Positions 3,870 through 3,892 of a stretch of 64,000 bases of DNA are shown one piece after another. The notes beneath the pieces are model-generated. The model worked only from the letters and a program-made list of their open reading frames with translations, searched no databases and had not been told where the DNA came from. This stretch comes from Escherichia coli. GTDB taxonomy: Bacteria; Pseudomonadota; Gammaproteobacteria; Enterobacterales; Enterobacteriaceae. Positions within the stretch are counted from its first letter, which is position 1, and each line of letters opens with the position of its first letter. The position numbers and the translations under genes were made by a program. Where the stretch lies: assembly GCF_003334305.1 (NCBI RefSeq), contig NZ_QOWS01000005.1; one strand, given 5' to 3'.

Positions 3870-3892
3870 ACTTTAGTTACAACATCCTTAAC
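3870..3892 (-). other. Replication terminator site TerB (Tus-binding Ter sequence)
   Basis: Minus strand reads gttaaggATGTTGTAACTAaagt with the conserved GTTGTAAC Ter core; lies just upstream of tus start as expected for TerB. Confidence 0.75.

Follow-up and report, generated by a model that had tools for sequence, protein, structure and literature searches.

A rare allele of the replication terminator TerB upstream of tus in Escherichia coli

The best described relatives of the site reported here are the Ter sites of E. coli, which are bound by Tus and stop replication forks from one side only. The non-permissive face is the end that carries position 1 and C(6); a fork that arrives there is held up at A(4)-A(5), after which C(6) is flipped into a pocket of Tus, while an approach from the permissive face meets Ter positions 19-20 first (PMC4499146). 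Positions 1-5, 7 and 19-23 are variable among Ter sites, with the outer positions lacking contact to Tus (Goodall et al., PMC8347550), and position 7 makes no base-specific contact with the protein (PMC8347550). TerB is among the sites most strongly occupied by Tus in ChIP-seq, and Tus-dependent polar fork arrest in vivo has been shown for the TerB of K-12 and BL21 (PMC8707476). PMC8707476 and PMC8347550, with reference to Roecklein et al. 1991 and to Roecklein and Kuempel 1992, place TerB within the tus promoter and have Tus repressing its own gene. The presence of TerB beside tus is thus a known, textbook feature, and what the present locus adds is a rare allele and a sequenced stretch that ends 1.2 kb short of TerC.

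The stretch of E. coli DNA analysed here (64,000 bases, referred to as the window) contains one such site, at 3870-3892. The site is almost certainly the chromosomal TerB of E. coli, and is predicted to be a polar fork barrier bound by the Tus protein of the adjoining gene and at the same time the operator of tus. The features of the locus are the following.

3870..3892, minus strand: TerB, 23-bp Tus-binding replication terminator, GTTAAGGATGTTGTAACTAAAGT, running from Ter position 1 (3892) to position 23 (3870)
3876..3883, minus strand (3883 to 3876): the GTTGTAAC core, Ter positions 10-17
3887: the G-C(6) base pair; the minus strand carries G, and the plus strand the locking cytosine C(6)
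3860..3869, minus strand (3869 to 3860): 10-nt spacer GGTTAATATT between Ter and the tus ATG
2930..3859, minus strand: tus, 309 codons plus stop, DNA replication terminus site-binding protein, assigned from its translation, TIGR02648 and the RefSeq annotation
3935..5236, minus strand: rstB, upstream of tus on the same strand, with a 75-bp gap to tus
3892..3920, minus strand: candidate sigma-70 promoter of tus, with a predicted -35 TGGTCA (3920 to 3915), a 17-nt spacer and a -10 TATAAG (3897 to 3892)

The initial annotation had recognised a 23-bp Ter-type sequence with the conserved core at this position, and that reading holds, since the site has all 13 of the conserved Ter positions (G6 and 8-19, i.e. 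G6 plus ATGTTGTAACTA) and agrees with K-12 TerB in 20 of 23 bases. A Ter-like string that arose by chance and has no function is a reading of negligible probability. It could appeal to the 8-bp core GTTGTAAC, which by itself is about as frequent as chance predicts (2 copies per 64 kb, 1.65 expected from shuffles); with a count so close to expectation, the core alone is uninformative. The longer matches speak against it. The site is the only one in the window with 13/13 conserved positions, the next best having 11/13, and the number of 13/13 cores expected per window, calculated from 4^-13, is about 0.002. With K-12 TerB as query and up to three mismatches allowed, the site is again the sole match in the window, and none of 100 shuffled sequences gave any. 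The site is also syntenic and conserved across about 5,420 genomes (see below).

The second copy of the GTTGTAAC core is at 28291, in a site at 28282-28304 on the plus strand (CGTACAGATGTTGTAACCATTGT) that lies inside ynfE (ORF 27623-30049, minus strand). It matches 11 of the 13 core positions, with A for G at position 6 and C at position 18. This site would face forks coming from oriC, but it is without the locking G-C(6) pair. With 1.65 such cores expected per window, a pseudo-site that arose by chance would account for it. A scan of the conserved positions found no full Ter site in the 64-kb window other than TerB.

The K-12 TerB sequence, AATAAGTATGTTGTAACTAAAGT, was read from NC_000913.3 (1,684,226-1,684,248), and the same sequence is given as TerB in PMC4499146. 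For the other catalogued sites, TerC was verified from K-12 and TerA by literature search. The comparison also took in the sequences of TerD to TerJ, of which those of TerE and TerG are consistent with the supplement of PMC8347550. Next to its 20 matches to TerB, the window site has 19/23 matches to TerA, 19/23 to TerG and 18/23 to TerC. It is therefore closest to TerB among the Ter sites, and the match is good well beyond the 8-bp core; the margin over TerA and TerG is one base, so that the name TerB is given by synteny more than by sequence alone. The initial annotation's naming of the site stands by position and best match, with the refinement that this is not the K-12 allele: the differences are at position 1 (G for A), position 2 (T for A) and position 7 (G for T). 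A 5-bp insertion relative to K-12 TerB (TAAGG between ATAAGT and ATG) was considered and rejected, because in an alignment with six other E. coli loci the difference comes down to three substitutions, with no base inserted or lost.

The cognate tus gene is intact beside TerB. Its product is identical in 308 of 309 residues to the Tus that was crystallised on Ter DNA (PDB 1ECR, 2EWJ, 2I05, 2I06), and over the 309 residues compared the sole difference from this K-12 protein is Ala23 in place of Ile23. It scores 549 bits against the NCBIfam equivalog TIGR02648, which has a cutoff of 178. The gene order is rstA-rstB-TerB-tus-fumC, with fumC downstream and convergent with tus, and the flanks are the same in K-12. 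In the RefSeq annotation of strain A7 the region likewise consists of rstA, rstB, tus and fumC, and the tus start corresponds exactly to window position 3859.

The site thus lies directly upstream of tus, between rstB and tus, as had been stated. Counted from the A of the tus ATG (3859), the last Ter base is at -11, with 10 nt in between; the earlier figure of 11 bp upstream of the start is this same spacing counted the other way. The spacing is also that of K-12, where TerB occupies 1,684,226-248 and tus starts at 1,684,259, and "the 10 bp region between tus and TerB" is mentioned in PMC8707476. Neither NC_000913.3 nor NZ_CP028767.1 has a RefSeq feature for TerB. Ter sites that are unmarked in this way are invisible to scans based on annotation.

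Several independent features orient the site on the chromosome. With position 1 at 3892 and C(6) at plus-strand position 3887, the forks that are blocked are those moving from high to low coordinates. Of 15 overlapping 8-kb windows, 14 show a positive GC skew of the plus strand (the remaining one has -0.004), and there is no fall in the cumulative skew; this makes the plus strand the leading strand, with normal replication proceeding from low to high coordinates. Of the 15 Chi sites (GCTGGTGG) in the window, where 1.74 are expected, 10 are on the plus and 5 on the minus strand. KOPS (GGGNAGGG) occurs once against 4.5 expected, and is uninformative as an orientation marker. The 64-kb window contains no dif-like sequence and no skew switch.

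The 64,000 bases are the reverse complement of positions 2,426,830-2,490,829 in the genome of strain A7 (NZ_CP028767.1), with 0 mismatches. In A7, TerC (ACATAGGATGTTGTAACTAATAT, 2,425,589-2,425,611) shares the orientation of TerB and is found 1.2 kb past the right end of the window, and dif (2,407,197-224) is 79.7 kb from TerB, beyond the high-coordinate end. Both dif and TerC are on the position-1 side of TerB in this strain, and the layout is the same in K-12, with dif at 1,590,750, TerC at 1,609,157 and TerB at 1,684,226. The TerC of A7 differs from that of K-12 at position 2 (C for T), an outer position. Together, the GC skew, the Chi bias and the positions of dif and TerC mean that the blocked direction is that of forks leaving the terminus. 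The orientation, which the initial annotation had left to be checked, is that of a fork trap: the permissive face is turned to forks from oriC, and the locking face with G6/C6 to forks leaving the terminus. On the left-replichore side of the fork trap, the window takes in nearly all of the sequence from TerB to TerC, and its assignment to the replication terminus region is borne out by the proximity of TerC and dif.

A scheme for the function of the site can be drawn by joining what is observed here (the sequence of the site, where it lies, how it is oriented with respect to skew, dif and TerC, and the intact cognate protein) to Tus binding, locking and autoregulation as known from the literature. 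Tus, whose gene starts 10 nt downstream, would bind the 23-bp TerB as a monomer, and the Tus-TerB complex would be polar. A fork moving from high to low coordinates would have come through dif and past a breached TerC, and would be leaving the terminus. The DnaB of that fork, travelling on the minus (G6) strand, would unwind Ter positions 1-6 first; the plus-strand C(6) at 3887 would be freed and would flip into the cytosine pocket of Tus, locking the complex and arresting the fork. A fork from oriC, moving from low to high coordinates, would instead meet the permissive face at position 23 and displace Tus. Bound Tus would in addition repress its own synthesis, since TerB is predicted to overlap the start of the tus transcription unit. 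Judging from the identity of the core, and from what PMC8347550 reports on positions 1-5 and 7, the allele in the window is predicted to bind Tus with high affinity and to form the locked complex.

The putative tus promoter abuts the site. The combination TGGTCA-17-TATAAG is a relaxed 9/12 match to sigma-70, and no other candidate in the 75-bp rstB-tus gap reaches 8/12; under strict sigma-70 criteria, a scan of 3700-4100 gave no promoter. The candidate -10 ends at Ter position 1, which puts the predicted transcription start within the Ter core, where bound Tus would occlude it. With the strict scan negative, the overlap of promoter and Ter rests on the relaxed 9/12 match and on secondary citations. 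Such an overlap would fit the literature, from which the autoregulation of tus through TerB is taken here, rather than from the sequence. The rstB-tus gap also contains no terminator-like hairpin (75 bp searched), so read-through from rstAB may likewise meet the non-permissive face.

It is possible, though rather improbable, that the site is mainly the tus operator, with a marginal role as a fork barrier because forks are stopped or fused at or before TerC. A fork coming from dif meets TerC, in the same orientation, 61.3 kb ahead of TerB and has to breach it first, and it has been argued that back-up Ter sites are not strictly needed (Toft et al., PMC8707476). The location of the site, with the candidate -10 hexamer on one side and the ATG 10 nt away on the other, also suits an operator. 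Against this, significant fork pausing at TerB is reported in PMC8707476 and in work cited there, and the same paper describes a non-permissive TerB at an ectopic site as an essentially unbreachable barrier that could not be inserted. The G6/C6 pair, which matters for locking (PMC4499146), is moreover kept in 7/7 aligned E. coli loci. The two roles are compatible and not mutually exclusive, and the reading preferred here, a polar fork barrier that is also the tus operator, includes both.

In an alignment of seven diverse E. coli loci (the window and six others), Ter positions 8-23, the spacer GGTTAATATT and the beginning of tus are invariant, as is G6. Variation within Ter occurs at positions 1, 2 and 7, and also at positions 3-5 in one strain with a 1-bp insertion; in these seven loci it is confined to positions that are not read by Tus, which agrees with and extends the 17-genome survey in PMC8347550. 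Allele frequencies were counted in 5,426 complete E. coli genomes with a 68-mer, in which the 23-mer is preceded by 10 invariant bases and followed by 35 more. One mismatch in a 68-mer brings identity below 99%, and the counts are therefore of exact matches. By their Ter positions 1-7, the alleles are distributed as follows.

AATAAGT (K-12): 2,320 genomes (~43%), exact 68-mer matches in 5,426 genomes
ATTAAGG: 1,237 genomes (~23%), exact 68-mer matches in 5,426 genomes
AATAAGG: 775 genomes (~14%), exact 68-mer matches in 5,426 genomes
GTTAAGG (window): 47 genomes (~0.9%), exact 68-mer matches in 5,426 genomes

Other spellings of TerB account for about 1,040 genomes, and the alleles with G7 together for more than 2,000. 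The TerB/tus locus is present once in nearly all of the 5,426 genomes (~5,420). A handful have no match to the locus, and one record labelled as a plasmid holds tus/TerB. The 47 carriers of GTTAAGG come from varied hosts, including cattle, humans, poultry, panda, orangutan and echidna, which indicates that the version in the window is a rare natural allele and not an artefact.

The rarity of the allele (47 of ~5,420 genomes), together with the fact that position 7 neighbours the locking cytosine, might be taken to mean that G1, T2 and G7 make this a weakened or degenerate Ter in its lineage. This is very unlikely in view of which positions differ. Alleles with G7 are found in more than 2,000 genomes, and over positions 1-19 the site departs from TerG only at position 3. 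Positions 1, 2 and 7 belong to the variable class that has no base-specific contact with Tus (PMC8347550), and G7 also occurs in TerC and TerG, both of them strong sites, TerG being called a strong binder and lock-former (PMC8707476). There is a small chance that the G1/T2/G7 combination is nonetheless not neutral and might retune tus expression or the kinetics of the lock in the lineage that carries it, as position 1 ends the candidate -10 and position 7 lies next to the locking cytosine. The candidate -10 hexamer is TATAAG in the window and TATAAA in the six other aligned loci except AMSHJX01.

Elsewhere in the window, the Hfq-binding sRNA STnc560 has a full-length Rfam match at 44704-44917 on the plus strand (282 bits, gathering score 55). 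The match adjoins dgcZ, and lies opposite the small genes mgtS and mgtT; this is presumably the MgrR locus. STnc560 is the only Rfam match in the window, and no tRNA genes were found there.

A stretch of low GC content (~0.44) extends over approximately 47459-53636, between marB and eamA. It encodes PTS IIA, IIB and IIC components, a carbohydrate porin, a 6-phospho-beta-glucosidase and a GntR-family pseudogene with an internal stop. K-12 is not known to have such a cluster between marB and eamA, and the stretch is therefore probably an accessory islet for sugar utilisation.

Beyond the correct annotation of one site, the significance of this TerB is slight; its recognition does, however, place the window on the chromosome map. 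Among the known systems, K-12 TerB is the nearest: it has the same rstB-TerB-tus-fumC locus, the same strand relative to tus, the same 10-nt spacer, identical positions 3-6 and 8-23, and the same orientation relative to TerC and dif. It differs in the distance between TerB and TerC, which is 75.0 kb in K-12 and 61.3 kb here (measured in strain A7). TerG matches the window site at positions 1-19 except for position 3. TerC and TerG have G7 and an identical core in common with the window site (the G7 of TerC was read in both K-12 and A7), but they occupy other loci that do not adjoin tus, and positions 20-23 of the window site (AAGT) are of the TerA/TerB type.

More distantly, the vicinal Ter sites of other Enterobacterales (Ter1 of Edwardsiella tarda, Cedecea, Salmonella and others; PMC8707476) also lie just upstream of tus and have the conserved core and C(6). 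Their identity to E. coli TerB is 74-83%, and the fork traps of which they are part differ in their number of sites (PMC8707476).

The RTP-Ter system of Bacillus subtilis reaches the same outcome, a polar protein-DNA fork barrier that frames the terminus. It does so with an unrelated dimeric winged-helix protein and unrelated DNA sites, and without the base-flip lock at C(6). RTP-Ter is not a member of the Tus-Ter family.
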